Positions 28,754-42,148 of a DNA stretch of 64,000 nucleotides are shown here, one piece after another; the stretch's first letter is position 1, and each line of letters starts with the position of its first letter. Below the pieces are notes generated by a model. That model was not told the DNA's origin. It did not search any database and saw only the letters and a program-made list of their open reading frames with translations. The translations under genes and the position numbers were made by a program. The DNA is from a virus, in the IMG/VR virus record IMGVR_UViG_3300037088_000882, positions 1 to 64,000 of that record. One strand, 5' to 3'.

Positions 28754-30280
28754 TTATTTAATAAATATTTTTGATCTGTATGTGTTATTTATGTTTGATA
28801 TTTGAATTAGACATTCTCCCGAGCAAGGGATTTTAATATTAGAATTATTTAATAAGGTTTGATAAATAAGTCGCCCTTGCAAATTCAGAACTGTTAAATG
28901 GTAAACATCTTTGTCGAAAGATGTAAGATGAAAGATTGTTTGGCCATTTATTTTTATTGCTTTTTCAGCGTAAATTTTATTCCCCGTGTTTATGGCTACA
29001 GGAGGAGGACTAGTGAAATGAAAAGAAATTGTATCTGGTACTGAGCCTCCCAAGTATACACATATTAGACCTGATCCAGTATCTATAGGTGAGAAAGTCC
29101 ATACACTATCATTAGCTGGAATTTTACTTGTCCTAACACCATTGGTGATGGACCAATCGGCTTTTAAACAAACCCATTGATTATTATCTATACGTCTGCC
29201 TTGGACTTGTAGTGACGTACTTTGGCCGGTGAGTAAATTTAGATTTTTTATAACCTGGCTATTTCCAGTGGTAATTCTGAGTGAGTCATAAAAAGATAAT
29301 ACTATAAAAGCTTTTGCCGTTTTAGTCATTTTTCCTAATGAGTCAGTTACCGTTAGAGTGACTGAATCAATACCAAAAGCTGAAGGATTCCATGCATAAG
29401 ATAAGGCTGTTCGACTCAACTGTACAGAAGTAGAATTTCCGATTTTTATGTATTGATATTGAATCCCTGCTGGTACTGTAGAAGTCCATGTTATTTGTTG
29501 CGGTGTTCCGATATATGCGATTAATGATGTGTTCGTTATAGATACGGTAGGAAGAGGGGCAGATATATTAAAAGAATCAGATGCAACATTATTAAAAGTG
29601 TCGGCATTCCAAGCACATATTTTGAAATTAACCCGGCCTATGTCAGTAGAGGTTGGAGTCCAGGAATAAGTGGATGATGTAGGACTAAGAGTGTCGAGTC
29701 TTGTAAAAGGTCTACCACTATGGCTTATCCATATAGATTGGGCTGTCACGGCAACGGTATCTTTTGTGATCCACTGGAATATAATTGGAGTTTTAATATA
29801 AGAATTTGGAGGAGTGGTTATTGAGATTGATGGAGGTTTTTCTAGTGCTCCTGATCCCATCATTGATAATGGCCAATGTTTACATATGTAAACTAAACTA
29901 TCTACGAGGCTGTCCTTGAGATCTAGTAACCAATATGCTTTATTATGAATTGTAATTACACCTGTCCAATAATCTCCTGCAGTAATTGTATGAGTAAGAG
30001 TTTTAGCTGATGATACGCCATTAGCCACAAAAGTTTTTATAGTATCATAAAAAATACTATCTGGACCGTATGGGTTGAGAGGCTTGTCATTAACGTCACA
30101 TACTTTACCCCGAAATGATACATAAAAATTCGTTTTTGAGGAGGTCCCGTACTGGACTATTGAATTTGATGCGTTAAAGATGTTTCCTGAAATTTTAAAA
30201 GTGAAACCTAATGCAGCTGAAGTAGAAAAGGACAGAAGAAACGTTAAGGTGATGGTGAGAATTAATTTATTCACAGGCAT
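28754..30280 (-). CDS. Secreted Ig-like repeat protein with T9SS-type C-terminal sorting-like domain
   Basis: Signal peptide; two PxxSIT..ITW..W.P Ig-like modules; C-terminus LTVLNLQGRLIY..LIQI..KIFIK; true start may be GTG at 30274 given RBS spacing. Confidence 0.6.
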   Translation of the reverse strand: MPVNKLILTITLTFLLSFSTSAALGFTFKISGNIFNASNSIVQYGTSSKTNFYVSFRGKVCDVNDKPLNPYGPDSIFYDTIKTFVANGVSSAKTLTHTITAGDYWTGVITIHNKAYWLLDLKDSLVDSLVYICKHWPLSMMGSGALEKPPSISITTPPNSYIKTPIIFQWITKDTVAVTAQSIWISHSGRPFTRLDTLSPTSSTYSWTPTSTDIGRVNFKICAWNADTFNNVASDSFNISAPLPTVSITNTSLIAYIGTPQQITWTSTVPAGIQYQYIKIGNSTSVQLSRTALSYAWNPSAFGIDSVTLTVTDSLGKMTKTAKAFIVLSFYDSLRITTGNSQVIKNLNLLTGQSTSLQVQGRRIDNNQWVCLKADWSITNGVRTSKIPANDSVWTFSPIDTGSGLICVYLGGSVPDTISFHFTSPPPVAINTGNKIYAEKAIKINGQTIFHLTSFDKDVYHLTVLNLQGRLIYQTLLNNSNIKIPCSGECLIQISNINNTYRSKIFIK

Positions 30281-30326
30281 CTCCTTTCTTTTTGGGTTTG
30301 AGTGCCTATGACTATATTATACATGT
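30271..30326 (-). repeat. Promoter/RBS cassette copy 1 (paralog of 31881-31932)
   Basis: acatgTATAAT..TCATAGGCA..AAACC..AAAAAGAAAGGA..GCCTGTGAA is shared by both copies. Confidence 0.7.
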
Positions 30327-30365
30327 TTTTTTAAGAAAAGATTAGTATGTCGGAAAAATAGATTA

Positions 30366-30530
30366 TTATTTTTCTAAATCTAACTTGATTATTTTAACCG
30401 TATACCCTGTACGTTTGTAAGGTTCTGACATTTTCTCGGCATGCTTCAAGGTCGAGATCTCTCGAGTGATAAGTTTCCATCGATCTGCTACTTTATAACA
30501 GGCAATATAATTATCTGGCTCTTTACTCAT
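30366..30530 (-). CDS. Small hypothetical protein (54 aa; not in ORF track)
   Basis: MSKEPDNYIACYKVADRWKLITRE...; starts 4 nt after the upstream stop codon. Confidence 0.5.
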   Translation of the reverse strand: MSKEPDNYIACYKVADRWKLITREISTLKHAEKMSEPYKRTGYTVKIIKLDLEK

Positions 30531-30534
30531 ATAT

Positions 30535-31338
30535 TTAATATCCAAGTACAGGATGACTCTTAAGGTTCTTTATAAGTTCATGGCATACTTCAAAGGGCAT
30601 TTGCGGGGCCCCTTCCGTGATTATGTGGCCTGGACTGAGCTCGGGTGGCTCTTCTTCCCAGGCCTGGTCTCTTAGACCTGGACTTAGAATGACGGCTGGC
30701 ATATAAGTGAAAGCCCAACCTTCTCTAGGGTAGTCCATTTCTGGAGTCAGGTATGTTTTCGCTATAAACAGATTATTAGTTATTTTCTCTACTACCAGAA
30801 CCCCATAAATTAAATCCAAATATATGAATTTATCGGTTTCACAAAAATAAAAGGAATTCATGGTTAGTATTCTAAGGTAATCAGCAGGATTGGGGTTTGT
30901 AAATAAAGTTTTTTGAAAAGATATTCTAAGATATCGAAAATTCTCCTCGTTGTATCTTTCTTTGAATTGTTCGAAACAATGAGCTGTGTAGAAGAGATGG
31001 TCCAGGTAAGTCCCTGGCATACTGCCGTAAAGCCTTCCAAACTCAGTTTTATATGTAACTTCGAAATTAGTGTATGCACGTAATTTACGATCGAAATTAT
31101 AGAGGTTTACCCATTCTCCGTAATAAGTGTGGAGCTCAGTAAGGATGTATTCCATTAATCTTTTTCTTGCATTATCCGATATTTTGCTGACATCTTTATT
31201 TTTGAATTCTTTGAGGAAGGCTTTTTCTAAGCAAATATTAAGCATGGCTCTAGGGTATCGTTCCAAGGCCACGGTCTTGAAATGTTTGTTGAGATCAGCA
31301 ATGACCTCTTCGGGATTTCCATAAGGTTTGAAAGCCAT
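30535..31338 (-). CDS. Hypothetical protein
   Basis: 267-aa ORF in a tightly packed - strand run. Confidence 0.6.
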   Translation of the reverse strand: MAFKPYGNPEEVIADLNKHFKTVALERYPRAMLNICLEKAFLKEFKNKDVSKISDNARKRLMEYILTELHTYYGEWVNLYNFDRKLRAYTNFEVTYKTEFGRLYGSMPGTYLDHLFYTAHCFEQFKERYNEENFRYLRISFQKTLFTNPNPADYLRILTMNSFYFCETDKFIYLDLIYGVLVVEKITNNLFIAKTYLTPEMDYPREGWAFTYMPAVILSPGLRDQAWEEEPPELSPGHIITEGAPQMPFEVCHELIKNLKSHPVLGY

Positions 31339-31341
31339 TAA

Positions 31342-31884
31342 TTAAAACCCAAGGTTTGCTTTTGATTCTCTGCGTTTGTTAATTGAATCATATTTCATAG
31401 AATTTCTAAATACAAAAGTAATTGGAGTTTTTTCATTGTAATAACTTGTAAGTACAAAGGTTCTTGTTTTAAATTCCCAGGTTATTTCTTGTTTTATGCC
31501 ATTTTCTTTAGTTTCTTCTTTTTTGTTTTCGAAACTGGTTTCAGATCCTAATCTTTCAACAAGTCTGTTATATAAAGTTTGAAGGCCTCCAATTTCGTGG
31601 CATTCTTCTTCATTATAAAAAATACCGATTGAATATAAAGTATCATCAAGAAAAGAGCATGCGGCGGCTGCGGCAGTTTTCATTACAGCAAGATACTGAT
31701 AGACACCTATTTCATGCTCGATATCTTTGGCAGGGAATTCTTCAGCATCTGGGTGAGCTTTTTTGAAATGCCCTAGAGTCATTCCTATTTTTAAATCCTC
31801 AAATTTAAAATCTTCTGATTTTTGGGAATAGCTTAAGCTGAATAAGAAGAGAGACGTTAAGATTAGACGTGGGATTGTTTTCAC
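31342..31884 (-). CDS. Hypothetical secreted protein
   Basis: N-terminal signal peptide (MKTIPRLILTSLFLFSLSYSQ); GTG start with AAAGGA RBS. Confidence 0.6.
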   Translation of the reverse strand: MKTIPRLILTSLFLFSLSYSQKSEDFKFEDLKIGMTLGHFKKAHPDAEEFPAKDIEHEIGVYQYLAVMKTAAAAACSFLDDTLYSIGIFYNEEECHEIGGLQTLYNRLVERLGSETSFENKKEETKENGIKQEITWEFKTRTFVLTSYYNEKTPITFVFRNSMKYDSINKRRESKANLGF

Positions 31885-31932
31885 AGGCTTCCTTTCTTTT
31901 TGGTTTAGAATGCCTATGAATATTATACATGT
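31881..31932 (-). repeat. Promoter/RBS cassette copy 2
   Basis: Near-identical to 30271-30326, including TATAAT and AAAGGA..GCCTGTG. Confidence 0.7.
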
Positions 31933-31964
31933 ATTTTGAGAGAGGTATAGAGGATTTTTTTAGA

Positions 31965-32051
31965 TGGTACCGGAAGAGTGACTTGAACACTCACGGGATT
32001 GCTCCCAATAGATCTTGAATCTATCGCGTCTCCCAATTTCGCCATTCCGGC
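31965..32051 (-). tRNA. tRNA-Leu(CAA)
   Basis: GCCGGAA..ATAGA-TT CAA GA-TCTAT, long variable arm, TTCAAGT T-loop, encoded ACCA. Confidence 0.92.
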
Positions 32052-32056
32052 TTAAG

Positions 32057-32272
32057 TGGTCAGGACAGGTTTACGCCCTACGATTTATGCCACACGCTTT
32101 TTCATTTTACTGTACAGTGTGGATCTATTAATATGAAGCATTTCAGCGATTTTTAAAGTGGGATTGGAGGAATTCGAATCCTCATTGTGTTGATTTTAAG
32201 TCAACTGCCTCTACCAGTTGGGCTACAATCCCTCAATATAAATCACATGTCTACCAATTTCAACACCTGAAT
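32057..32272 (-). pseudogene. Split/degenerate tRNA-like shell enclosing tRNA-Leu(TAA)
   Basis: 5' half TCAGG-TGTTGAAATTGGTAGACA (D-arm) at 32272-32240; 3' half GTAGG-GCGTAAA-CCTGT-CCTGA-CCA at about 32088-32057; GATTTAT/ATAAATC closes the insert. Confidence 0.45.
32159..32232 (-). tRNA. tRNA-Leu(TAA), short variable loop
   Basis: GGGATTG..GTTGA-CT TAA AA-TCAAC..GAGGA-TTCGAAT-TCCTC-CAATCCC-A; no full CCA. Confidence 0.9.
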
Positions 32273-32280
32273 AGTAAAAA

Positions 32281-32363
32281 TGGAAGGGGCAAGATTTGAA
32301 CTTGCGAACTCCGAAGAGACGGGATTTACAGTCCCGGGCCTTTAACCACTCGACCACCCTTCC
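32281..32363 (-). tRNA. tRNA-Tyr(GTA)
   Basis: GGAAGGG..CGGGA-CT GTA AA-TCCCG, variable arm, GCAAG-TTCAAAT-CTTGC; CCA not encoded. Confidence 0.92.
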
Positions 32364-32370
32364 GTAAATT

Positions 32371-32456
32371 TGCGGATAAGAAGATTTGAACTTCTAAAAG
32401 GATTACTCCTCGCTGGTCTCTGAAACCAGTGTGTTTACCAATTCCACCATATCCGC
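32371..32456 (-). tRNA. tRNA-Leu(CAG)
   Basis: GCGGATA..CTGGT-TT CAG AG-ACCAG, long variable arm; CCA not encoded. Confidence 0.9.
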
Positions 32457-32464
32457 GTAATATA

Positions 32465-32621
32465 TAGATTGCGTTCAAGTTACTAAAGCATTTACCCCTT
32501 TCGGGATACTTGTCGATTCTCAAGATCGATGCCTTACCAATTTGGCTATATTTCCATTCGGAAACACTCGGAGTCGAACCGAGATTAGTAATGTAGGCTT
32601 TAATTGTAAAAACGCAATCTA
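32465..32621 (-). ncRNA. Circularly permuted tRNA-mimic RNA 1 (YrlA/Y RNA-like) with a TGA anticodon-like loop
   Basis: 11-bp terminal stem TAGATTGCGTT/AACGCAATCTA; order is T-arm, closed acceptor hairpin (TGTTTCC-GAAT-GGAAATA), D-arm, then TCGAT-CTTGAGA-ATCGA. Confidence 0.75.
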
Positions 32622-32624
32622 ATC

Positions 32625-32711
32625 TGGTGCGGTCGGTCTGATTTGAACAGGCATAGGATTGCTCCCACATGCACCTCAAGCATGCGTGGCTACCAATTAC
32701 ACCACGACCGC
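32625..32711 (-). tRNA. tRNA-Leu(GAG)
   Basis: GCGGTCG..CATGC-TT GAG GT-GCATG, long variable arm, encoded ACCA; one T-stem mismatch. Confidence 0.9.
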
Positions 32712-32719
32712 ATAATTTA

Positions 32720-32864
32720 TAAAGCCATATCCGAGTTATCAATGCTATCTTGATAGATTCTATTCTATTGCCTTTACCATTTGGCTATTCCCCCATAATT
32801 GGGGGAACGTGGAATCGAACCACGAATTTTTAATGTAAGCATCAACGGTAAAGATATGGCTTTA
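32720..32864 (-). ncRNA. Circularly permuted tRNA-mimic RNA 2 (YrlA/Y RNA-like)
   Basis: 12-bp terminal stem TAAAGCCATATC/GATATGGCTTTA; CGTGG-TTCGATT-CCACG, TTCCCCC-AATTAT-GGGGGAA, GCC-AAATGGTAAA-GGC, ATAGA/TCTAT. Confidence 0.75.
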
Positions 32865-32877
32865 ATTTCAAAGAACT

Positions 32878-32966
32878 TGGTGCGAATGTAGAGATTCGAA
32901 CTCTAAAGAGCTGTTAAGCTTCCAGATTCTAAGTCTGGCCCCTGCTACCAATTCGGGTACATTCGC
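32878..32966 (-). tRNA. tRNA-Leu(TAG)
   Basis: GCGAATG..CCAGA-CT TAG AA-TCTGG, long variable arm, TAGAG-TTCGAAT-CTCTA, ACCA. Confidence 0.92.
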
Positions 32967-32975
32967 ATATATTTA

Positions 32976-33046
32976 AGACGGTGCCCAGGATCGAACTGGG
33001 GCTGTCGGTTTTGCGGACCGATGCCTTACCTCTTGGCTACACCGTC
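32976..33046 (-). tRNA. tRNA-Cys(GCA)
   Basis: GACGGTG..TCGGT-CC GCA AA-ACCGA..CCCAG-TTCGATC-CTGGG-CACCGTC-T; U73 discriminator, atypical C33, no CCA. Confidence 0.85.
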
Positions 33047-33195
33047 GGATAAAAGAATTTATCTAATTCAAAGACCTCGTTTAAACATATTTCATTGATT
33101 TTCTCATTTGTGAAATCAGGTTCTTGGCCTTCTTCTATGCACGAGAATTTAAATGGTACATTATCTCGTAATTCATGCCCTATTTTAATTTTCAT
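33037..33195 (-). CDS. Small acidic hypothetical protein (52 aa) ending inside tRNA-Cys
   Basis: GAGGGG RBS; MKIKIGHELRDNVPFKFSCIEEGQ...; TAG stop is at tRNA-Cys positions 8-10. Confidence 0.35.
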   Translation of the reverse strand: MKIKIGHELRDNVPFKFSCIEEGQEPDFTNEKINEICLNEVFELDKFFYPTV

Positions 33196-33211
33196 TTAAT
33201 CCCCTCAGTAT

Positions 33212-33259
33212 AAAACAAAAAACCCTGCTTGATCTTTAGAACCAAGCAGGGTTTTGTTT
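33212..33259 (-). terminator. Attenuator terminator A
   Basis: AAAACCCTGCTTG / CAAGCAGGGTTTT stem followed by a T-tract (TTTTTTGTTTT). Confidence 0.85.
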
Positions 33260-33279
33260 ATTTCTTTTTTAACTTTAGA

Positions 33280-33366
33280 TCAAGACAAAATCCTACCCGG
33301 TCCCTTTAGATAGCTAAGGTAATATGATAGACACAAAGGTAAGGATTGAATAGTCTTATTGCTCAT
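33280..33366 (-). CDS. Leader peptide A (28 aa, Leu/Tyr/Cys/Ser-rich) of a putative tRNA-operon attenuator
   Basis: MSNKTIQSLPLCLSYYLSYLKGPGRILS*; ATG is 8 nt after the -10 box; the 3' end can pair with the terminator 5' arm. Confidence 0.75.
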   Translation of the reverse strand: MSNKTIQSLPLCLSYYLSYLKGPGRILS

Positions 33367-33374
33367 GATAACTA

Positions 33375-33403
33375 AATATAACACAGAAAAAATAAAAAGT
33401 CAA
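33375..33403 (-). promoter_or_regulatory. sigma70-type promoter of tRNA operon A
   Basis: TTGACT-17 nt-TATATT with extended -10 TGn. Confidence 0.75.
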
Positions 33404-33411
33404 TTACTTTT

Positions 33412-35484
33412 TTAAGGTTCTACTGCTGTAAAGTCATTTTCAGGAACAGTGCTTTTATTTTTAGATCCGTATTTCCCAAGACGTGGCGAAATAAGAGAGT
33501 CTTCGGAAATAAACCCCATAAGAGCTGAAGTTAAAGCTTGCTCACTAAGATATTCTTTTATTACCTGATCTTTATTCAAAACTTTAAAAAGTTTCATAAC
33601 ATGAGATACTTTGCATAATGCCACTTGTCGATAGGCACTAAGAACATCTTTTTTGATAGCATTAGAGTACATAACATTATGTTGTTTTTGATGAAATTCT
33701 GCAGTTTCTTGTATGATTGGGGATTCTTCATTAAAAAATACTGCGGATCCCATATGTCCGTCTTCAAAACGGTGTTCATCTTTATAGAAGCATATATTTA
33801 CTTCATGTTGCATATCATTTTTTCCTACAGGGACAATTATTGGCATATCTTTTTTAATTTTTATTTCTATACTAGGAGTAGAATCTCCTGTGCTTTTTGC
33901 CTTTTTAACTCGAATACGTCGCCAAATTTGTTGAGAACCATCTATTGCTACGCCAGTTTTTTTCTCACCTGTATCGCTACCTTTACCCTCACTACTCCCT
34001 TTACTTACGCCATTTAAAAAGCTCTCCCCCTCTTGGCTAGAGTCGATGAGACCGGTACTTTTTTGGTTTACAGGAACTTCTTCGTCAGTAGGGTCTTTTT
34101 TTATTTTTGATTTATTGGAATAATCTATGACATGGATACTATCGGCAAACCTATTACCGTATTTATCTAAAATTCTTTTTAGAAGAGCTTCATTGCCAGC
34201 AATTAGATCATCGCTGTCTCTGTCTTTATGTAATTCTTTGATTGTGTTAACTATTTCTTCTGGCATGTTTTTTATAAACAGGAGTCCCCAATATTCCATA
34301 GGAAGTTCAATACTTTTTTTCCCGTTTCCAGTAAAGAATAAATTTGATCGGCTTTGATCAGGGAAGACGCCCCAATCTGTCTCTTGTGTGTGAATCTGGG
34401 GTTCTATAATAATAGTTAATCGATTTTGAATTTCTTTGTCAATTATTCCGAAATTTCTAAAATTTGATATATGAGAATTAAAATTATATAGCTCTCCTTT
34501 ATACATAACAGCAATGAAACCACTTTCTAGAGCATAGCCGTGACATACAGGACGGGCACCTTCCCAAAGGTACCAGCTAATTTTAAGTTTGCCATCTTCG
34601 AGATAGAAGGTATCTGCTGTTTTAAGTTTACCTATTTTTGGGGCAATAACTTTAGCTTCTGTTATGTAATACTTAGCTCCATGGCATATCCTGGTATTTC
34701 CCCTGGTAGTATTATATTTTTGTAATTTTTCATTGAATTCTTTTTCGCATCGCGGCCATTCATCTCGATTAGCTTTTCCATAATTAAATTCTTTAACACT
34801 AACTTGAATATTGTCCAGATTAAAAAAACGTGTATTAATATAACGTGTCAAATTTGAGGTATACCCTTTTTCCGATTGCATGTATGTGTCAGTTTTTGAG
34901 TCGTTCCCCATAAGAATGATGCAGGTTCCATGATCTCTAACCCATTTTGGAGCAACTAAAGACCAATCAATTTCATCCTCTTCCCATTCTACTGACATAG
35001 GGTCGATAACGGTTGCTATCTCATCGTTAAATTCCCAACTGGAAATGCTATAGGCTTTTTCCTCTATGTCATAATACATTCGTATCATTGATCCAATACC
35101 GTTTTGGTAAGATATGTATACAACACCAGCCCCATTCCATGGCAGAAGAGATATTCTACATCCAATACCAAAATTTGTGTGAATGACTCTATCATTTTCA
35201 TTCATTTCCTGCATGACTGCTTTACCGCTGGATTGTATGTTTGTAAAATATTTTTTAAGTTGTTCTGCGGACATGCCATCCCCATCGTCGCAAATCATAT
35301 GACGGTAAACACCCTCTTTAGTAACCGATTGCCATTCAACTCCAAACTCTACTTTTTTAGCATGGGCTTCAATGGCATTCATTAAGACTTCACGGGCCCA
35401 TTGATAAGGTTGGCAAAAACGGTATGTTCTGAGAATAAAATCTGTGGCATTTTCCATGCCAATGGGGAAGCTTTTGGAAGACAT
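33412..35484 (-). CDS. GHKL-family (HATPase_c / Hsp90/MORC-like) ATPase
   Basis: Bergerat motifs REVLMNAIEA, DDGDGMS and NFGIGCRIS; AAAGGA RBS. Confidence 0.75.
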   Translation of the reverse strand: MSSKSFPIGMENATDFILRTYRFCQPYQWAREVLMNAIEAHAKKVEFGVEWQSVTKEGVYRHMICDDGDGMSAEQLKKYFTNIQSSGKAVMQEMNENDRVIHTNFGIGCRISLLPWNGAGVVYISYQNGIGSMIRMYYDIEEKAYSISSWEFNDEIATVIDPMSVEWEEDEIDWSLVAPKWVRDHGTCIILMGNDSKTDTYMQSEKGYTSNLTRYINTRFFNLDNIQVSVKEFNYGKANRDEWPRCEKEFNEKLQKYNTTRGNTRICHGAKYYITEAKVIAPKIGKLKTADTFYLEDGKLKISWYLWEGARPVCHGYALESGFIAVMYKGELYNFNSHISNFRNFGIIDKEIQNRLTIIIEPQIHTQETDWGVFPDQSRSNLFFTGNGKKSIELPMEYWGLLFIKNMPEEIVNTIKELHKDRDSDDLIAGNEALLKRILDKYGNRFADSIHVIDYSNKSKIKKDPTDEEVPVNQKSTGLIDSSQEGESFLNGVSKGSSEGKGSDTGEKKTGVAIDGSQQIWRRIRVKKAKSTGDSTPSIEIKIKKDMPIIVPVGKNDMQHEVNICFYKDEHRFEDGHMGSAVFFNEESPIIQETAEFHQKQHNVMYSNAIKKDVLSAYRQVALCKVSHVMKLFKVLNKDQVIKEYLSEQALTSALMGFISEDSLISPRLGKYGSKNKSTVPENDFTAVEP

Positions 35485-35588
35485 AAAAATTATCCTTTCA
35501 CTAGTAGTACTAGGGATTGGTTAAAGTAAAAAATAAACTAAGATAAAACTTGAGTTTAAAACACAAGGTTTATCCATAACATTAAAAT

Positions 35589-36416
35589 TTATGGGAATAT
35601 GACCATTTCGTTTGAAACAGGTATAGATCGATCCTCTTTTTTACTTTTATTACTACTTTTCGCTGAATATATAATGTCAATTCCTTGTAAATTATTTCCG
35701 TTGAATAGCGATTCAGTCGCAGATAGTCTATCTATGGACAAGCACCAAGCTTTTTTAGTATTTAAAAAGTCTCTTAAACGTTCAAGATCTTTTAGGCCAA
35801 AGTCACAATTATACCATTTTTTTCCGTATTTAATATAAGGAGGGTCTGCGTAGATGAAATCGAATGGCACATTGTTTAGGAAAGTTTCGAAATCCTCACA
35901 AGAAACGGAAAGGATTTTATCTTTTAACAACATTCTTGTCCGTTCGATTTTTCTTATGATATTTGGAGGATTCCAGTATACGTCAACATTCCAGGCACTT
36001 TTTTGATCCCACCCTCCGATTGGCAAAGACTCTGTAATAAAGCCGTTGTATGAGGTTTTATTAAGGAAGATTACTTTAAATGTTTTTTCTAAGTTTGTTG
36101 TTGGTTCACTGTGAAAAATATTTTTGTAGGTTTCTAAATTAACAACTTGAGTTGTAATTGCTTTATAAAGGGCTTCAAATTCAGAGTTTTTTGAGGCTTT
36201 AAAAAATTTCCAAAATGACCCTACATCTTTATTAGCGTCATTAAGATGGAATTTCCATAAAGGAAAATCCTTTGCCATGTTAATTAATGACCCGCCTCCT
36301 CCGACAAAAGGTTCAGCTACTGTCCATTCTGATGTGCGGGCTTCAGGATATGTGTTTTTTATCATTAAGTCTATTTTTTTCATTAGCCTTAATTTACCGC
36401 CGGGGTATCTTAGCAT
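35589..36416 (-). CDS. dam: DNA adenine methyltransferase (Dam/D12 class)
   Basis: LRYPGGK, EPFVGGGG, FLNKTSYNG and YADPPY motifs. Confidence 0.88.
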   Translation of the reverse strand: MLRYPGGKLRLMKKIDLMIKNTYPEARTSEWTVAEPFVGGGGSLINMAKDFPLWKFHLNDANKDVGSFWKFFKASKNSEFEALYKAITTQVVNLETYKNIFHSEPTTNLEKTFKVIFLNKTSYNGFITESLPIGGWDQKSAWNVDVYWNPPNIIRKIERTRMLLKDKILSVSCEDFETFLNNVPFDFIYADPPYIKYGKKWYNCDFGLKDLERLRDFLNTKKAWCLSIDRLSATESLFNGNNLQGIDIIYSAKSSNKSKKEDRSIPVSNEMVIFP

Positions 36417-36541
36417 TTATTATCCAATTCGGGTTGTGGAGTGAAAATAACGCTTTATATATAATACTCGAATTATATATAAATATAAAAATAAATCGTT
36501 TAGAATCTACGAAAGGTAGGTAATATCAGGATGGGGAGTTT

Positions 36542-36859
36542 TCAGATTTTTATTTCTATAGGTTTTAAGATCATTGATTCGTCTTCTCCTGCATATACTA
36601 CAGGGATTTCTGGGTACAGCTTTTTTAATTTATTTGCAAGTTCTATTCCCCAGGTATTAAGTTTTTTTGCTTTGCCTTTTTTGAATGTTGAATAATCTGA
36701 TTCGAAGCAAGTATCGTAATATCTTATCCAAGATTCAAATTCGTTGATTAATTCTTGAGGCAGTTTTAACTCTTCGTAATCAATCATGCCACCAAGATTC
36801 TCCCATATACCAGAACTTGAGAAGTCTGGCATTACTTTTAGCTTTGTTATCTCATTCAT
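36542..36859 (-). CDS. Hypothetical protein
   Basis: 105 aa, AAAGGA RBS, follows tRNA-Ala. Confidence 0.6.
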   Translation of the reverse strand: MNEITKLKVMPDFSSSGIWENLGGMIDYEELKLPQELINEFESWIRYYDTCFESDYSTFKKGKAKKLNTWGIELANKLKKLYPEIPVVYAGEDESMILKPIEIKI

Positions 36860-37241
36860 GATTTTCCTTTAAATAAGTGGAGCTACGGGGATTTGAACCC
36901 CGAACTTTCAGCTTGCAAAGCTGACACTCTTCCAATTGAGTTATAGCCCCATTATTTTCTATCTGAATTTCAGATTTCCAGTCTTTTTGTTTCTTTTCCT
37001 GCATTGTTAAACTTCCACCACTTTCCCAGGCAGTACGCCTTGGGTTTCCACACATATCACAGCTACATAGTTTTGTAGTATTTCTAAGTATGTAAGAGAA
37101 ATACCTCAATGTTTTTTCTGTAGGCTTTGAAGAACATAACAATCCTTGAGCACGTTTCTTCCCCTTATTGGCCCCAATAAGGAAACGTTCTCTACGATCT
37201 TTTGGATGAGACATAATGTACCCTTTTCTAGCGTCACTCAC
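36852..37241 (-). CDS. Small basic Cys-motif protein (CSCxxCGNPR) whose reading frame runs through tRNA-Ala
   Basis: Start is GTG 37241 or ATG 37214; Lys/Arg-rich; no stop codon before the tRNA. Confidence 0.6.
   Translation of the reverse strand: MSDARKGYIMSHPKDRRERFLIGANKGKKRAQGLLCSSKPTEKTLRYFSYILRNTTKLCSCDMCGNPRRTAWESGGSLTMQEKKQKDWKSEIQIENNGAITQLEECQLCKLKVRGSNPRSSTYLKENHE
36878..36950 (-). tRNA. tRNA-Ala(TGC)
   Basis: GGGGCTA/TAGCTCC with G3:U70; TCAGC-TT TGC AA-GCTGA; no full CCA. Confidence 0.93.
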
Positions 37242-37276
37242 TGACGCATGATAGTGGATATCATTATGTGCTCCTT
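37212..37276 (-). promoter_or_regulatory. uORF (MISTIMRQ*, 37264-37238) within a hairpin that sequesters the downstream start
   Basis: AAAGGAG RBS; CATAATGATATCC pairs with GGGTACATTATG; inner GCGTCA-GTGAG-TGACGC has the TGA stop in its loop. Confidence 0.5.
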
Positions 37277-37287
37277 TCTTTAAAATA

Positions 37288-37360
37288 AGCCGATGAGAGG
37301 GCTCAAACCTCCAACTTGCTGATTACAAATCAGCTACTCTATCAATTGAGTTACACCGGC
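37288..37360 (-). tRNA. tRNA-Thr(TGT)
   Basis: GCCGGTG/CATCGGC; GCTGA-TT TGT AA-TCAGC; A19/U56 replaces G19/C56; no CCA. Confidence 0.88.
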
Positions 37361-38661
37361 GTATGAACATATACGTTTTTAATATACTCCAAAGCATCTT
37401 CTTGATTCAAGATCGTCCCCTCGAGTTGTTGGTCCTCGATATCGGTTAAGATAATACCGAACTCTGGGCCTTGTTTAAAGCCCATATTAAGCAAATCCTT
37501 ACCAGTCACGATTCTTGGAGGACGAATTTCTTCTGGCTCATAAGTCTTGAGCTTTTCGATAACGAAATCATAGTTCTCAAGATTCCTATGCGATGATAAA
37601 CAATCTACCCGATGAAGAGCTAAATGATCTTCAATATTAGGTAGAGCCAGAAATCTTTTCAGTCGAGAAACTCTCATTTTCTTCACATGCATAAATTTCA
37701 TGTGGTTTTCGACTAAGTCTGAAATTCGAGTTACGAAATCATTTGAAAATTTCAACCTTTTCAAAATTCCCCAAGCAATATACTTACCCTTGATATCGTG
37801 GCCACTAAACCTTATACGGTCCTCGAAGGTTTGAGTAGGTGGCTTACCCACATCATGCAATAAGGTTGCCATTCTCACCTCAATAGAAGCCTCAGTAGGA
37901 AGATTTTCAAGAGCTTTTATCGTATGCTCGAGAACATCTCCTTCGGGGTGGTATTGAGGTGGTTGCTCACAACCCTTCATGGCCCGGACCTCGGGCAGGA
38001 TATGATCGATTAATCCAGTATCAAAAAGAAGGTTTACTGCCTTCCTGTAATTACCTGCCATAAGAATCTTAGTAAGTTCATCTGCAACTCTCTCGGCCGA
38101 GACCTGGGTTATTTCAAAGGCATGCCTTTGAACTGCCTCTATGGTGCCTGGATCGATTTTGAAATCAAACCTGGCAGAAAAACGTACAACTCTCATCATA
38201 CGTAATTTATCCTCAGCAATACGGTCATCAGGATTACCTATAAGCTTTATGATACCCTTATGAAGATCTTCAATACCTCCAACAGAATCGTAAATCTTAT
38301 CTTCAATTGGGTCATAGAACATCCCATTGATGGTAAGGTCCCTACGTTGAGCATCCTCTTCCATGGTGCAAAAAGAAACGCTATCGGGCCGTCGACCATC
38401 CGAGTACACTCCATCAGTCCTATAAGTAGCTACTTCGACTTCCTGGCCTTCATGGACGACTACAATGACTCCGAAAGCTTTGCCAACTGCAAGAGTCTTA
38501 TCGAATAATTGCTCGACCATTTCGGGACGTGCGTTAGTGGCTATGTCGATATCAGTTGAAGTCCTTTGTAAGAGCATGTCTCGGACATAGCCTCCAGCAA
38601 AGAGAGCTTCATAGCCATGGTCTCGTAATTTTTTAACTACATATAATGCTTGTTGTAACAT
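37351..38661 (-). CDS. cca: CCA-adding tRNA nucleotidyltransferase with HD domain
   Basis: AGGYVRD, DIDIAT, EDAQRRDLTINGM, EDKLRMMRVVRF, YHPEGDVLEHT and LLHDVGK motifs. Confidence 0.95.
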   Translation of the reverse strand: MLQQALYVVKKLRDHGYEALFAGGYVRDMLLQRTSTDIDIATNARPEMVEQLFDKTLAVGKAFGVIVVVHEGQEVEVATYRTDGVYSDGRRPDSVSFCTMEEDAQRRDLTINGMFYDPIEDKIYDSVGGIEDLHKGIIKLIGNPDDRIAEDKLRMMRVVRFSARFDFKIDPGTIEAVQRHAFEITQVSAERVADELTKILMAGNYRKAVNLLFDTGLIDHILPEVRAMKGCEQPPQYHPEGDVLEHTIKALENLPTEASIEVRMATLLHDVGKPPTQTFEDRIRFSGHDIKGKYIAWGILKRLKFSNDFVTRISDLVENHMKFMHVKKMRVSRLKRFLALPNIEDHLALHRVDCLSSHRNLENYDFVIEKLKTYEPEEIRPPRIVTGKDLLNMGFKQGPEFGIILTDIEDQQLEGTILNQEDALEYIKNVYVHTPV

Positions 38662-38662
38662 A

Positions 38663-38974
38663 TTATCCTATTTTGATATTTTCTTCTTCAATTTTAACCC
38701 CTTGTTTTTCAAGGGATTTGAGATCTCTTTCCAGTTCCTTTATATCTTGTTTTTTATGCTCCAAAACATATATGATAAATCTTTTTATAGCTATGGCATC
38801 TTCATCTGAAACTTGAACAGTTGAATAGCTTGAAAATTGTATCTCTGATTTTGTTGGATCATCTTTTTTATAGCACAGTATTCGTGTGTTTGCACTACCG
38901 CCTGTGAAAGAATATTCAATGCCTTCTGAAAAAAAAGATCCAGTACAGACATGCATAATATTAACATTTTTCAT
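38663..38974 (-). CDS. Hypothetical protein
   Basis: 103-aa ORF between tRNA-His and cca. Confidence 0.55.
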   Translation of the reverse strand: MKNVNIMHVCTGSFFSEGIEYSFTGGSANTRILCYKKDDPTKSEIQFSSYSTVQVSDEDAIAIKRFIIYVLEHKKQDIKELERDLKSLEKQGVKIEEENIKIG

Positions 38975-38993
38975 ATTTTATCCTATTTAAATT

Positions 38994-39071
38994 TGGGGTG
39001 GAAGACGGGGCTTGAACCCGCAACCACTGGCTTCACAGGCCAGGGCTCTAGCCAATTGAGCTACCTCCACC
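38994..39071 (-). tRNA. tRNA-His(GTG) with encoded G-1
   Basis: G-GTGGAGG..CTGGC-CT GTG AA-GCCAG..CTTCCAC-C-CCA. Confidence 0.93.
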
Positions 39072-39077
39072 ATAAAA

Positions 39078-39767
39078 TCAGTCTTCTCTTACTTGAACAA
39101 ATTTTTCGATGTATTCTCGATCTTTAGTGAAAATCGGAATGTTTAAATCTACATCCCCATTAACAACACAAAAACCACGTTTCCGCACAACTGGATATTT
39201 ATCGAAATTTATTCCTTTTTTCTGGAATAGTAACTCTTGTATTTCCTTACAAGAGACTTTATTTAATTCCTTGTGTGAAAAGTTTTCTCGCCCTGCCATC
39301 TGGATTGAGTTCCTGGTGGCATCCACTTGTCTCCATATGAAATAGTTTACTACCTCATCCTGAGGAATTGAAAAAACTCTACTATCAAAACAGACGTTGC
39401 TTCCATAGAGTCGAGAAAAGACTGCACTGGCCAAGGAAGCTGATATTGAAATCATTTTTCGTGCATCGTATCCGAACCAGGCATCTGTCGAGATCTTTTT
39501 ATAATCTGTTAAAAGAAAGCTTATTTCGTCGGATTGGCAGTAACAAAAACCGCACCCTTGAATGTCAGCTAATACCGTATTAGCAGTTGCGATCATTTGC
39601 TCGGTAAACTCCATGGACCATCCTTTTCCGAATCTTTTTCTGGTGATGGTGTGGAAGGCCCGGCCATCGATCCTGAGTATTACCGGAATCCGTCTTGGTA
39701 AAGTCCAAGCTGAGACTGATTCATAACGCTTCATGCGATCGCCTAGGTCTAACCTATCACTACTCAT
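39078..39767 (-). CDS. tRNA(His) guanylyltransferase / Thg1-like 3'-5' polymerase
   Basis: RMKRYE, RIDGRAFH, QSDEISFL, FDSRVF and YFIWRQVDATRNSI motifs; adjacent to tRNA-His. Confidence 0.93.
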   Translation of the reverse strand: MSSDRLDLGDRMKRYESVSAWTLPRRIPVILRIDGRAFHTITRKRFGKGWSMEFTEQMIATANTVLADIQGCGFCYCQSDEISFLLTDYKKISTDAWFGYDARKMISISASLASAVFSRLYGSNVCFDSRVFSIPQDEVVNYFIWRQVDATRNSIQMAGRENFSHKELNKVSCKEIQELLFQKKGINFDKYPVVRKRGFCVVNGDVDLNIPIFTKDREYIEKFVQVRED

Positions 39768-40014
39768 TTTTATTCCGATCTGTTATATAAGATTTAAGTC
39801 TTTTAATTATCCCATTTCCTGTTTCTATACCGTAGAAATCATTCACACAGTTATGGATTCTTTCTACGATTCGATCTGATTTTGATCCTTGTTTTACTGC
39901 GTTTTCGTAATAATCAATCCAGTCTACAAGCATGTTGTTTTTTTGCAGTACTTCTAACACAAATTCAAGAGGTAGCCCTATAGATGATACTACAAAATGG
40001 ATTCCTCTAACCAC
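39760..40014 (-). CDS. Small protein resembling the AlaRS helical 'YDTYGFPLDLT..VD' segment
   Basis: FVVSSIGLPLEFVLEVLQKNNMLVDWIDY; start uncertain; similarity judged by eye. Confidence 0.4.
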   Translation of the reverse strand: MVRGIHFVVSSIGLPLEFVLEVLQKNNMLVDWIDYYENAVKQGSKSDRIVERIHNCVNDFYGIETGNGIIKRLKSYITDRNKNE

Positions 40015-40096
40015 TATTTTTTTATCGGTCGAGTATCCTGAGAACTGTGATACGTTGCGTTTAGCATGAAGCTATTACCCTTCTATTATACATAAA

Positions 40097-40182
40097 TGGC
40101 GGAGGCGAGACGAGTCGAACGTCCAAGGCCTTTCGGCCGGCGGTTTTCAAGACCGCTGAATTACCAGTTATCCTACGCCTCC
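40097..40182 (-). tRNA. tRNA-Ser(TGA)
   Basis: GGAGGCG..GCGGT-CT TGA AA-ACCGC, variable arm GGCC-GAAA-GGCC, G73-CCA. Confidence 0.92.
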
Positions 40183-40192
40183 ATATATCTCA

Positions 40193-40265
40193 AGCCCACA
40201 TCCTGGATCGAACAGGAGACCTCATCCTTACCAAGGATGTGCTCTACCAACTGAGCTATGTGGGC
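40193..40265 (-). tRNA. tRNA-Thr(GGT)
   Basis: GCCCACA/TGTGGGC; CATCC-TT GGT AA-GGATG; no CCA. Confidence 0.93.
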
Positions 40266-40268
40266 ATA

Positions 40269-40709
40269 TTACCTTAACCCGTAAAGGTACAGCAATCCTG
40301 CCCATCCACTTGGAAGGCATTCTGGTGCTGTTTCTAATTTCTTTCCGTATTTCACAGCCATTTCTAAAAAATACTTAGCATGAAAGAATGCCTCTAACAT
40401 TGGCCGAGTGTGTTTGAGCCATTCCTTATTATGTTTTGAATCAAATACTTTACCAGTTCCTTCCTGGTATATTTGATCGAAGTCATCATTAAACATAACT
40501 CCTACAGGAGCTAAACTTTTTAAAGTTTCTATTATCTTTTGAGTGCTTCCCTGTATGCCGTATACTTTAAAAGAGGAATGGTAGAAACGGTAAACGTAAT
40601 CCTCATAACACCAATGGTCATTAATATCTTCCAGGAGCTTTTCAAGCTCGGGGAGTCTTGCCTTGATATTTACCAAGAGGTCTTTACTAAGATCTTGTCT
40701 CTCACTCAT
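40269..40709 (-). CDS. Hypothetical protein (146 aa; start corrected to ATG 40709)
   Basis: AAGGGAG RBS before MSERQDLSK; the track's longer N-terminus crosses the terminator and tRNA-Trp. Confidence 0.7.
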   Translation of the reverse strand: MSERQDLSKDLLVNIKARLPELEKLLEDINDHWCYEDYVYRFYHSSFKVYGIQGSTQKIIETLKSLAPVGVMFNDDFDQIYQEGTGKVFDSKHNKEWLKHTRPMLEAFFHAKYFLEMAVKYGKKLETAPECLPSGWAGLLYLYGLR

Positions 40710-40729
40710 AAGAACTCCCTTTTTAAAGA

Positions 40730-40791
40730 TGGCAGGAGTGGATCGAACCCCCATCGTCGGTTTTGGAGACCGGGTGCTTAGCGACACTCCT
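40730..40791 (-). pseudogene. Truncated tRNA-Trp(CCA), 62 nt
   Basis: Intact acceptor AGGAGTG/CACTCCT-G-CCA and CGGT-CT CCA AA-ACCG; D-loop and the 3' strand of the T-stem are deleted. Confidence 0.75.
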
Positions 40792-40793
40792 AT

Positions 40794-40835
40794 AAAACAA
40801 AAAACCCCGCCGAATCTTTCGATCGAGCAGGGTTT
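40794..40835 (-). terminator. Attenuator terminator B
   Basis: AAACCCTGCTCGATC-GAAA-GATTCGGCGGGGTTT followed by a T-tract; homologous to terminator A. Confidence 0.85.
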
Positions 40836-40864
40836 GATTTGAAACACTTTATTTTTACTTAACC

Positions 40865-40963
40865 TTACTCGATCTCCAATATAGTATGCCAATGTGCCCA
40901 TGATGTCGATGTGGTGGCCATTGCATTATTAGAGGATGATGTAGTAAGATTAATTGTTTTCAT
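40865..40963 (-). CDS. Leader peptide B (32 aa, Thr/Ser/Ala/Trp/His-rich) of a putative tRNA-operon attenuator
   Basis: MKTINLTTSSSNNAMATTSTSWAHWHTILEIE*; ATG is 7 nt after TATAAT; the stop region pairs with the terminator 5' arm. Confidence 0.8.
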   Translation of the reverse strand: MKTINLTTSSSNNAMATTSTSWAHWHTILEIE

Positions 40964-40970
40964 GGTTATA

Positions 40971-40999
40971 ATTATACTATATATTTCGGTTCGTGTCAA
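40971..40999 (-). promoter_or_regulatory. Consensus sigma70 promoter of tRNA operon B
   Basis: TTGACA-17 nt-TATAAT. Confidence 0.88.
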
Positions 41000-41009
41000 T
41001 ATTTTTAAT

Positions 41010-41468
41010 TTATTTCATATTTCTGCTTTTGAACTCTTCTATTATTTGTAAATGATCAAAAGCCATTTTTTCAGGTAATTCTGATATACGGAACCATTTA
41101 GCCTCTTTAGCGTCATCTCTAGCCTCTACTGCATCAATAAGTTTCTTGCTGTATGGGATGAGGGCATAATAGACAACAGACACTACTCGGCCTCTCGGGT
41201 CTCGGCCTGGGTCTCCAAAAGTTTTAAATTGTTTTAGAGGGATATTTTTTAAATCCTTGGTAGACAGAGATGTTTCTTCTTTTAATTCTCTGTAGGCGGC
41301 TTCTTCAAGGGTTTCTCCTGAGTCCAAATAGCCTCCAGGTATTGCCCACATATCTTTAAATGGGTTATTCACACGTTTTATGAGTAATATGTTTACCCAT
41401 TTTCTTATTGGGGTCATGATCACAATATCAACTGTTACGTTTTGTTTTTCGTATTTTCTTTTATTCAT
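41010..41468 (-). CDS. NUDIX hydrolase (ADP-ribose pyrophosphatase/NrtR-like Nudix domain)
   Basis: Nudix box GGYLDSGETLEEAAYRELKEETSL; FGDPGRDPRGRVVSVVY and AFDH motifs. Confidence 0.9.
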   Translation of the reverse strand: MNKRKYEKQNVTVDIVIMTPIRKWVNILLIKRVNNPFKDMWAIPGGYLDSGETLEEAAYRELKEETSLSTKDLKNIPLKQFKTFGDPGRDPRGRVVSVVYYALIPYSKKLIDAVEARDDAKEAKWFRISELPEKMAFDHLQIIEEFKSRNMK

Positions 41469-41488
41469 ATATTACCTTTGTTAAGAGA

Positions 41489-41558
41489 GGAAGTCCGAGA
41501 GACTGGAGGAAAAACTCGGACTTCCAAGAGCACCAGCATTTGACGCTGCTGTAGCTCC
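41489..41558 (-). other. Intergenic double hairpin (possible small RNA or regulatory element)
   Basis: Perfect 11-bp stem GGAAGTCCGAG/CTCGGACTTCC with loop TTTTTCCTCCAGTCT, preceded by a GAGC..CAGCA/TGCTG..GCTC hairpin. Confidence 0.45.
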
Positions 41559-41582
41559 ATAATTTATTATACTGTATTGCTA

Positions 41583-41741
41583 CTATCGATCTGAAATACG
41601 CTCTCTGGTTGAAAATCTATATTCACATTCAACACATTTTCTACGCCTTCGGATATATGTGGCATAATCACGGGAATCTATTACTATGGTTTTGCCTTTA
41701 CATTTTGGGCAAACAAGGTTTTTACGGTTGAGGTTTAACAT
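41583..41741 (-). CDS. Stand-alone NrdR-type zinc-ribbon protein (52 aa; not in ORF track)
   Basis: CPKCKGKTIVIDSRDYATYIRRRRKCVECEYRFSTRE matches the NrdR N-terminal CP.C..DSR..IRRRR.C..C..RF.T.E pattern; no ATP-cone. Confidence 0.75.
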   Translation of the reverse strand: MLNLNRKNLVCPKCKGKTIVIDSRDYATYIRRRRKCVECEYRFSTRERISDR

Positions 41742-41871
41742 CTGGTATCCTATCTTCGATCGTTACTATTGCGTGACATTGAGGACACGTAAGTTTTTTA
41801 GGGTTAAAAAGAATAGGTTCTAATTTTTCTTCTTCTGAAAGGGCTCCACAAAAACCGCATTTGTATTTCAT
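41722..41871 (-). CDS. Small zinc-ribbon protein (49 aa; not in ORF track)
   Basis: MKYKCGFCG...LTCPQCHA; abuts the upstream ORF. Confidence 0.55.
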   Translation of the reverse strand: MKYKCGFCGALSEEEKLEPILFNPKKLTCPQCHAIVTIEDRIPDVKPQP

Positions 41872-41872
41872 G

Positions 41873-42148
41873 TCACTTATTCCCTATCTCATTATTGGCG
41901 TCTAAAGACATAAGTGTGTTAGATGAAGCATCCTGTGACGTTCTTATTTCTTCACAATATCCTGAGCATTCCGTTACTACCCAATAAAGGCCGTCTTGCT
42001 TTTTTTCCTTAGTGAATTTATTACATACAGAGAAAGGGTCCCCAGCAATGAGAACACATGAAGCACACCTAGTTTCTCTACGTACTTCTCCTACGTGTCG
42101 AGCTGCGAGGCGAAAAGATGAATCGACTGGAATAAAGATGTAGTTCAC
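41873..42148 (-). CDS. Hypothetical protein
   Basis: 91-aa ORF in operon. Confidence 0.5.
   Translation of the reverse strand: MNYIFIPVDSSFRLAARHVGEVRRETRCASCVLIAGDPFSVCNKFTKEKKQDGLYWVVTECSGYCEEIRTSQDASSNTLMSLDANNEIGNK

Follow-up and report, generated by a model that had tools for sequence, protein, structure and literature searches.

When does a phage that carries its own tRNA genes transcribe them? The presence of tRNA genes in phages, a matter of argument for decades, has been explained mainly by codon compensation, by the replacement of degraded host tRNAs, and by the escape from tRNA-targeting defences (PMC10264068, PMC11464382). The question of their control is raised by a locus at positions 33212–33403 (minus strand), where a promoter, a short open reading frame (ORF), and a terminator precede a block of tRNA genes. 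The locus lies in a window of 64,000 nucleotides, which is the first 64 kb of the 92,412-bp record IMGVR_UViG_3300037088_000882, in which ARAGORN called 20 tRNA genes; positions are those of the window unless marked as genome positions. Four such modules are present in the 92-kb record, one ahead of each tRNA block, and the one at 33212–33403 is referred to as module A. The record is probably a fragment of the genome of a huge uncultured phage, since an identical copy of the 690-aa protein encoded beside module A was found on a 474-kb contig and all sequencing runs containing the phage DNA proved to be peat or lake metagenome DNA contigs, with no RNA run among them. Among GenBank phages, neither a near nor a distant DNA match to the phage was found, nor a protein match for the 690-aa neighbour.

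Promoter, leader ORF, and tRNA genes of module A

Upstream of module A lies the gene of the 690-aa protein, a GHKL-type ATPase (33412–35484, minus strand; HATPase_c_3, E 9.5e-09) with approximately 20 homologs, all metagenomic and none named. As a route to syntenic relatives this gene was rejected, since its homologs in IMG/VR and metagenomes lack synteny and in no aligned segment exceed 53% identity.

The sigma-70-type promoter of module A (33375–33403, minus strand) consists of a −35 hexamer TTGACT (33403–33398), a 17-nt spacer, a TGT extension (33383–33381), and a −10 hexamer TATATT (33380–33375), and scored 10/12 plus the TG extension in the promoter scan. The leader ORF (33280–33366, minus strand) has 28 codons followed by a TGA stop (33282–33280). 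Its ATG (33366–33364) is located 8 nt past the −10 hexamer, and the combination of TTGACT-17-TATATT, TGn extension, and ATG at this distance was thus found where the preliminary description, made from the letters of the DNA, had placed it. The corresponding distance is 6–7 nt in modules B and D, and these spacings of 6–8 nt point to leaderless mRNAs in all three modules. No Shine-Dalgarno sequence precedes leader A, which would therefore have to be translated as a leaderless mRNA, as its transcript probably is.

Codons 9–20 of leader A (33307–33342, minus strand) read TTA CCT TTG TGT CTA TCA TAT TAC CTT AGC TAT CTA, and their composition is the one reported earlier: five Leu codons of four types (TTA, TTG, CTA, CTT, CTA), three Tyr, one Cys, two Ser, and one Pro. 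Nine of the twelve, all except CCT, TCA, and AGC, are read by tRNAs encoded downstream. Against a background frequency of 0.137, this count was reached by two of the 426 small ORFs of the genome, leader A among them, so that a single other ORF equals it; the best 8-codon window contains 6/8 matching codons. Taken alone, the codon match of module A is only moderately strong; of the three modules whose leaders match their tRNAs (A, B, and C), module A has the weakest statistics. The absence of CTG from the leader, already recognised as a caveat, was correct, and CTC is unsampled as well. From this codon run, we infer that leader A would act as a Leu/Tyr/Cys sensor.

The tRNA block that module A would gate (31965–33046, minus strand) encodes, in order of transcription, Cys-GCA (33046–32976), Leu-TAG (32966–32878), Leu-GAG (32711–32625), Leu-CAG (32456–32371), Tyr-GTA (32363–32281), Leu-TAA (32232–32158), and Leu-CAA (32051–31965), all on the minus strand. 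The five Leu isoacceptors (TAA, CAA, TAG, GAG, CAG) and the Tyr and Cys tRNAs of the preliminary description were each called by both ARAGORN and Rfam, the latter with 43.6–63.2 bits. Just past the terminator and ahead of these genes, a 52-codon ORF with a GAGGGG ribosome-binding site (33037–33195, minus strand) is the first unit met by read-through, and its end overlaps tRNA-Cys by 10 nt. Searches of Pfam and PHROG gave no match for the 52-aa product or for the flanking small proteins. Two gaps between the Leu tRNA genes (32457–32624 and 32712–32877, minus strand; approximately 167 nt each) are paralogous. Both contain a T-loop-like GGTTCGA followed by a D-arm-like AGCCAAAT..AAGGCA, that is, tRNA parts in permuted order, and the only Rfam hit in them was a weak tRNA match at 32503–32555 (24.8 bits).

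Putative RNA switch and proposed mechanism

Between the leader stop codon and the 52-codon ORF lies an intrinsic terminator (33212–33255, minus strand), composed of a 5' arm (segment 3, 33255–33240), a loop (33239–33235), a 3' arm (segment 4, 33234–33219), and a U tract (33222–33212). Its hairpin comprises 16 pairs with a ΔG of about −22, and it is the strongest terminator in the 31–42 kb region and one of the four strongest of the 92-kb record; the terminators of modules A to D all rank among the strongest in the record. Those of modules A and B have the motif AAACCCTGCT in common, together with a common tail after the stem.

The 5' arm of this terminator has a second potential partner within the leader ORF. 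Segment 2, the 5' strand of the predicted antiterminator (33286–33305, minus strand), is contained in codons 21–27, ends 3 nt before the stop codon, and pairs with 33255–33238 at a ΔG of −20.7 kcal/mol (RNAduplex). This value was matched by two of 1000 random genome segments and, after dinucleotide shuffling of the upstream region, by none of 1000 sequences; with a wider terminator arm, a ΔG of −21.5 was obtained (p 0.000). Counting by hand reproduced the pairing of 19 of 20 positions that had been proposed between the 20-mer and the terminator arm, and five of the pairs were G:U. Segment 1 (33338–33347, minus strand) can in turn pair with part of segment 2 (33297–33289) when the RNA is free of ribosomes. 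This 1:2 helix, likewise proposed beforehand, was present in both the MFE and the centroid folds, and the 2:3 pairing is the stronger of the two at equilibrium.

The effect of a ribosome on these pairings was calculated by folding each transcript up to the terminator loop with the ribosome footprint masked at each A-site codon. In module A, the terminator 5' arm was sequestered with a probability of 0.92 when the A site was at codon 18 or earlier, of 0.85 at codon 19, 0.64 at codon 20, and approximately 0.4 from codon 21 on. The second caveat of the preliminary description, that late stalls would partly mask the antiterminator, was accordingly borne out, masking starting at codons 19–20. In all four modules the arm was sequestered (P 0.8–0.9) with the ribosome at or before a particular codon, namely 19 (A), 27 (B), 22 (C), and 21 (D), and was largely free (P 0.3–0.4) after the ribosome had reached the stop. 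The cognate runs (codons 9–20 in A, 7–27 in B, and 9–24 in C) end at the edge where a stall no longer favours the antiterminator, as they do in the trp, his, and leu attenuators. Without any ribosome, the 2:3 pairing also wins at equilibrium (P 0.92), and termination of an untranslated leader therefore depends on kinetics.

A cmscan of positions 30000–42000 at E values up to 1 returned only tRNAs and a sub-threshold PyrR site, with no Rfam leader family (Leu, His, Thr, or Trp) and no T-box. The PyrR-site match (33214–33323) was treated as a chance hit, as its 29.6 bits compare with a gathering score of 54 (E 0.89). In the read cover of four sequencing runs, contigs were identical or cover was lacking, so these runs provided no natural variants for covariation analysis.

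Considering these elements together, we judge it likely that module A is a ribosome-mediated (leader-peptide) transcription attenuator gating a phage tRNA operon. This reading, put forward in the preliminary description, gained support from the presence of all structural elements in the right geometry and from their recurrence. Leader translation, stalling, the direction of the switch, and its biological trigger are parts of the mechanism that we infer as follows. Host sigma-70 RNA polymerase would initiate a transcript that begins at or beside the leader AUG, and a ribosome would translate the 28-codon leader while the polymerase nears the terminator. If Leu, Tyr, and Cys codons were decoded fast, the ribosome would arrive at codons 21–28 or the stop and cover segment 2, the terminator would form, and transcription would end at about 33212. 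If matching charged tRNAs were scarce, the ribosome would stall within codons 9–20 and leave segment 2 free to pair with the terminator 5' arm, and the resulting antitermination would allow read-through into the 52-codon ORF and the tRNA genes for Cys, Leu (five), and Tyr. The new phage tRNAs would then relieve the stall, so that the circuit would constitute a negative feedback on decoding capacity, with the operon made on demand and shut off afterwards. Candidate triggers are the depletion or cleavage of host tRNAs and a high demand from phage genes. Accordingly worded, the phage probably makes its Leu, Tyr, and Cys tRNAs only when ribosomes read those codons slowly.

Recurrence of the module and alternative readings

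The other three modules of the record share the architecture of module A. Module B (40794–40999, minus strand) has a 12/12 promoter (40999–40971), an apparently leaderless ORF of 32 codons (40963–40865), an antiterminator strand across the stop codon (40875–40860), and a terminator (40835–40794), all on the minus strand; its operon encodes tRNAs Thr-GGT, Ser-TGA, His, Thr-TGT, and Ala. Module C (genome positions 88487–88260, minus strand) precedes tRNAs Asp, Met, Met, Ile-GAT, Phe, and Ser-GCT, and module D (genome positions 89404–89590, plus strand) precedes two tRNA-Glu and a tRNA with a UAU anticodon. In each of modules A to D the antiterminator strand abuts or overlaps the leader stop, and its duplexes with the terminator 5' arm have ΔG values of −20.7, −18.1, −13.1, and −24.0, with shuffle p values of 0, 0.003, 0.026, and 0, respectively. 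A strict promoter search of the 92 kb (TTGAC[AT], 16–18 nt, TANNNT) returned eight sites vs. approximately 11 expected by chance. Restricted to TTGAC[AT], a 17-nt spacer, and a TAT-type −10 hexamer, it returned four sites, which are exactly the four module promoters.

The leaders also correspond to their own operons. The number of codons read by tRNAs of the own operon was 10/27 for leader A, 14–17/31 for leader B, and 15/28 for leader C, with values of 0–9 for other small operons. The range for leader B reflects the counting rule: 14/31 by the wobble rule, 15 if TCT is counted, and 17 with its two Trp codons. Even the two families of Ser codons are divided in this way: leader B uses TCN and is followed by Ser-TGA, whereas the cognate run of leader C uses AGY and is followed by Ser-GCT. 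Only three of the 24 codons of leader D (one GAA and two ATA) match the visible tRNAs despite the same architecture, and hence either the codon rule is not universal or the operon of module D extends beyond the record.

Operon B also contains tRNA-maturation enzymes beside their likely substrates (37351–39767, minus strand). A Thg1-like guanylyltransferase gene (39767–39078) ends 8 nt ahead of tRNA-His, and the gene of a CCA-adding enzyme with an HD domain (38661–37351) overlaps the start of tRNA-Thr-TGT. Attenuator B would control both enzymes together with the tRNAs.

The Thg1-like gene was used to retrieve 80 phage loci, and the tRNA regions of four records were examined. Related phages yielded six more modules, counting once the three that each of the sister phages G001 and G002 carries and adding three in the more distant G003. 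One leader of the sister phages has the consecutive codons GCA/GCG ACA ATT AGA ATG 11–17 nt before a tRNA block encoding Met, Thr-TGT, Ile-GAT, Ala-TGC, and Arg-TCT. In another, approximately 18–20 consecutive Thr, Asn, Phe, Ser (AGY), and Cys codons precede Phe, (Asn), Ser-GCT, Cys, and Thr-CGT; the tRNA-Asn is present in G002 and absent in G001, where the leader still has Asn codons. A module that samples approximately ten isotypes precedes a block of 15–17 tRNAs. In these sister phages the antiterminators have ΔG values of −16.3 to −23.2, with p values no higher than 0.008, and are located −17 to +12 nt from the leader stop. In G003, a Gln/Trp/Pro run precedes tRNAs Gln, Pro, Pro, and Trp, TTA and ATY codons precede Leu-TAA and Ile-GAT, and Ser and Arg codons precede one Arg and four Ser tRNAs. 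The antiterminators of G003 were weak and not significant (p 0.07–0.18) and were consequently left out of the support for an RNA switch. Across the ten modules of G000, G001, and G002, the antiterminator strand is found from −21 to +12 nt relative to the stop codon of the leader, which itself precedes the terminator arm by 20–30 nt.

Over ten non-orthologous modules, 115 leader codons are read by tRNAs of the own operon. When leaders and operons were re-paired at random, the mean was 48 (sd 10.6), and 115 was not reached in any of 200,000 permutations; nine of the ten modules are written in the codons of their own operon. Because the modules recur and their leaders co-vary with their own tRNA sets, the attenuator reading stands well above coincidence. 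No such leaders were present at nine other phage loci with tRNA genes, among them the complete 215-kb G004 with its 32 tRNAs, and the pattern is thus no by-product of adjoining tRNA genes. Between the orthologous leaders of G001 and G002, the middle is reshuffled in order and length within the same set of amino acids, while conservation extends over segment 2, the spacer, and the terminator; at one stem position a C-G pair is replaced by T-A, a compensatory change. This conservation of pairing next to reshuffled codons is consistent with selection that acts on the identity of the codons and on pairing in the RNA, and not on the sequence of a peptide.

These comparisons bear on whether the attenuators might be real and still work as a general or temporal switch, which responds to any slowing or loss of translation, as through amino-acid starvation, a global shut-off, or the stage of infection, and uses the codon match as secondary tuning. 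Stalling cannot distinguish an uncharged from a missing tRNA, and the ribosome-free RNA forms the antiterminator at equilibrium, so that loss of translation itself may turn the operon on; in addition, module D has the architecture without a matching leader, and the strict sigma-70 promoters suggest early transcription by the host polymerase. We nevertheless regard such a switch as unlikely, as it needs no codon match, yet all modules but one use the codons of their own operon, down to the TCN/AGY split of Ser, and orthologs keep the same amino-acid set while reshuffling their leaders.

Much less probable is that the promoter and terminator belong, with the small ORF between them, to a small gene of their own whose product is a short hydrophobic peptide or a small RNA, the tRNAs being transcribed from another promoter or by constitutive leak-through. 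The three elements do make a complete unit, a Leu/Tyr-rich peptide could be membrane-active, and internal promoters downstream of terminator A may drive the tRNA block: weak promoter-like sites (9–10/12) occur inside the block, at chance density, none of the internal sites past the terminator being of the strict module-promoter form. Left unexplained, however, would be a peptide composition that tracks the downstream tRNAs in ten modules, a strand at the stop codon that is complementary to the terminator arm, and the position of the tRNAs in several modules 2–17 nt after the U tract (2–3 nt in module C, 11 nt in module G001-1, and 8 nt in module G003-2), which makes those blocks transcribable only by read-through. 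The peptides, moreover, are unconserved between modules and between orthologs.

Equally remote is a plain terminator that merely ends the operon of the 690-aa GHKL-ATPase, with promoter-like site, ORF, and complementarity arising by chance in AT-rich intergenic DNA: the region does contain about as many promoter-like sites as chance would give (35 found vs. 34.3 expected) and the homolog of the 690-aa gene in the relative L011 is directly trailed by a plain terminator, but the combination of a strict promoter with an ATG where the transcript should start, a codon run, and an antiterminator recurs at four places in the 92 kb, each of them ahead of a tRNA block, and again in relatives. Since no terminator was found between the stop of the 690-aa gene (33412) and the leader, and nothing else would end that transcript earlier, terminator A may serve the upstream transcript as well, and a single terminator could fill both roles.

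A comparable arrangement is found in a cultured phage. In Cellulophaga phage phi38:1 (NC_021796), a leader run with codons for Lys, Thr, Ile, Met, Asp, Arg, Gly, and Val lies within gp066, which is annotated as a small gene; the run is followed by a terminator and then by the first tRNA block, with tRNAs Lys, Ile, Gly, Met, Asp, Thr, Val, and Arg. As infection RNA-seq of phi38:1 has been published (PMC5335546), a cultured system is available, and its layout makes the mechanism testable there. The sequence following the terminator stem is alike even in distant phages, with a T run followed by GTTTT or ATTGG (33212–33222 and 40794–40804 in the window, and in G001, G002, G003, and phi38:1), which may reflect common descent or a processing signal.

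Known attenuators and possible roles

Module A resembles the enterobacterial attenuators (trpL, hisL, leuL, pheL, thrL, and ilvL) in its promoter, its short ORF with a run of regulatory codons, and its intrinsic terminator, as well as in the mutually exclusive 1:2, 2:3, and 3:4 pairings of four RNA segments; a ribosome at the stop, which covers segment 2 in those attenuators, would do so in module A as well. Sampling of several amino acids by one leader is known from thrL and ilvL, and the phage leaders do likewise. The enterobacterial attenuators, of which that of pheL has been described (PMC3082878), control biosynthetic enzymes, whereas the phage modules precede tRNA genes and, in module B, tRNA-maturation enzymes. 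The phage modules further differ in their probably leaderless mRNA, the absence of a Shine-Dalgarno sequence, the sampling of up to approximately ten isotypes, an output that would feed back on the very quantity sensed, and the absence of all Rfam leader families from the cmscan at E values up to 1. Closer in its target is the attenuator of the pheST operon of E. coli with its pheM leader, which controls a component of translation matched to the codons sensed. It is cellular, however, and acts on a synthetase and on one amino acid, whereas the phage modules would act on the tRNAs themselves and on several isotypes at once.

T-box riboswitches share with the switch proposed for module A a conditional antitermination that reports the state of specific tRNAs and controls genes of the translation apparatus. 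They bind the uncharged tRNA directly through a specifier codon, with neither ribosome nor ORF, whereas module A has a potentially translatable ORF. The nearest case in the literature is that of Anabaena, where the accessory tRNAs of a long array operon are silent by default and switched on under translational stress (PMC8421152). That array is cellular and shows no codon-matched leader, and the text of the paper mentions no attenuator, leader, or terminator (PMC8421152). Full-text literature searches retrieved no description of attenuators before tRNA genes, in phages or in cells. Codon-matched attenuation of tRNA genes, which would extend a known kind of attenuator, is apparently unpublished.

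If the leaders read the decoding speed of the codons of their own tRNAs, phage tRNAs would be made on demand, and this would argue for a variable shortage rather than a fixed mismatch in codon usage as the reason for carrying them. The tRNAs themselves would then join the classes of gene known to be controlled by textbook attenuation, which would create a direct feedback loop. More tentatively, and with considerable doubt on our side, the modules could provide isoacceptor-resolved surveillance of the host tRNA pool, each leader sampling the anticodon families that its operon replaces. Cleavage or depletion of tRNAs, whether by anticodon nucleases, by PARIS-type effectors, or by the phage degrading host tRNAs, would switch on the matching block only, and the replacement block would be turned off again after decoding had recovered. 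Such surveillance would amount to a sensing, self-limiting counter-defence that is widespread, occurring in peat, marine, and other uncultured phages and in the cultured phage phi38:1.

The leaders may also be of use in annotation, as they would indicate how tRNAs are grouped into transcription units and which odd tRNA-like genes are likely functional. One example is a tRNA-like element directly after terminator B (40725–40791, minus strand), which has a CCA (Trp) anticodon loop and an acceptor stem of 7 bp that is perfectly paired, but is too short for a normal T arm; it follows the leader with two Trp codons. The element was called only by relaxed ARAGORN, both Rfam and default ARAGORN being negative, and for this reason Trp was not counted as cognate in the main statistics. 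Another is the third tRNA of operon D, after the two tRNA-Glu (L026 5871–5951; genome positions 89870–89950, plus strand), whose UAU anticodon would decode AUA. This tRNA has almost no D arm and a 22-nt variable region, was found by Rfam with 37 bits and missed by ARAGORN, and follows the leader with two ATA codons. Finally, a tRNA with a CTA anticodon (an amber suppressor, labelled Pyl by ARAGORN) was found in relatives (L011 7679–7753, L142 14583, L143 4990, and L146 6008). In two cases it stands at the end of a gated tRNA block, and TAG may be recoded in the phages that carry it.
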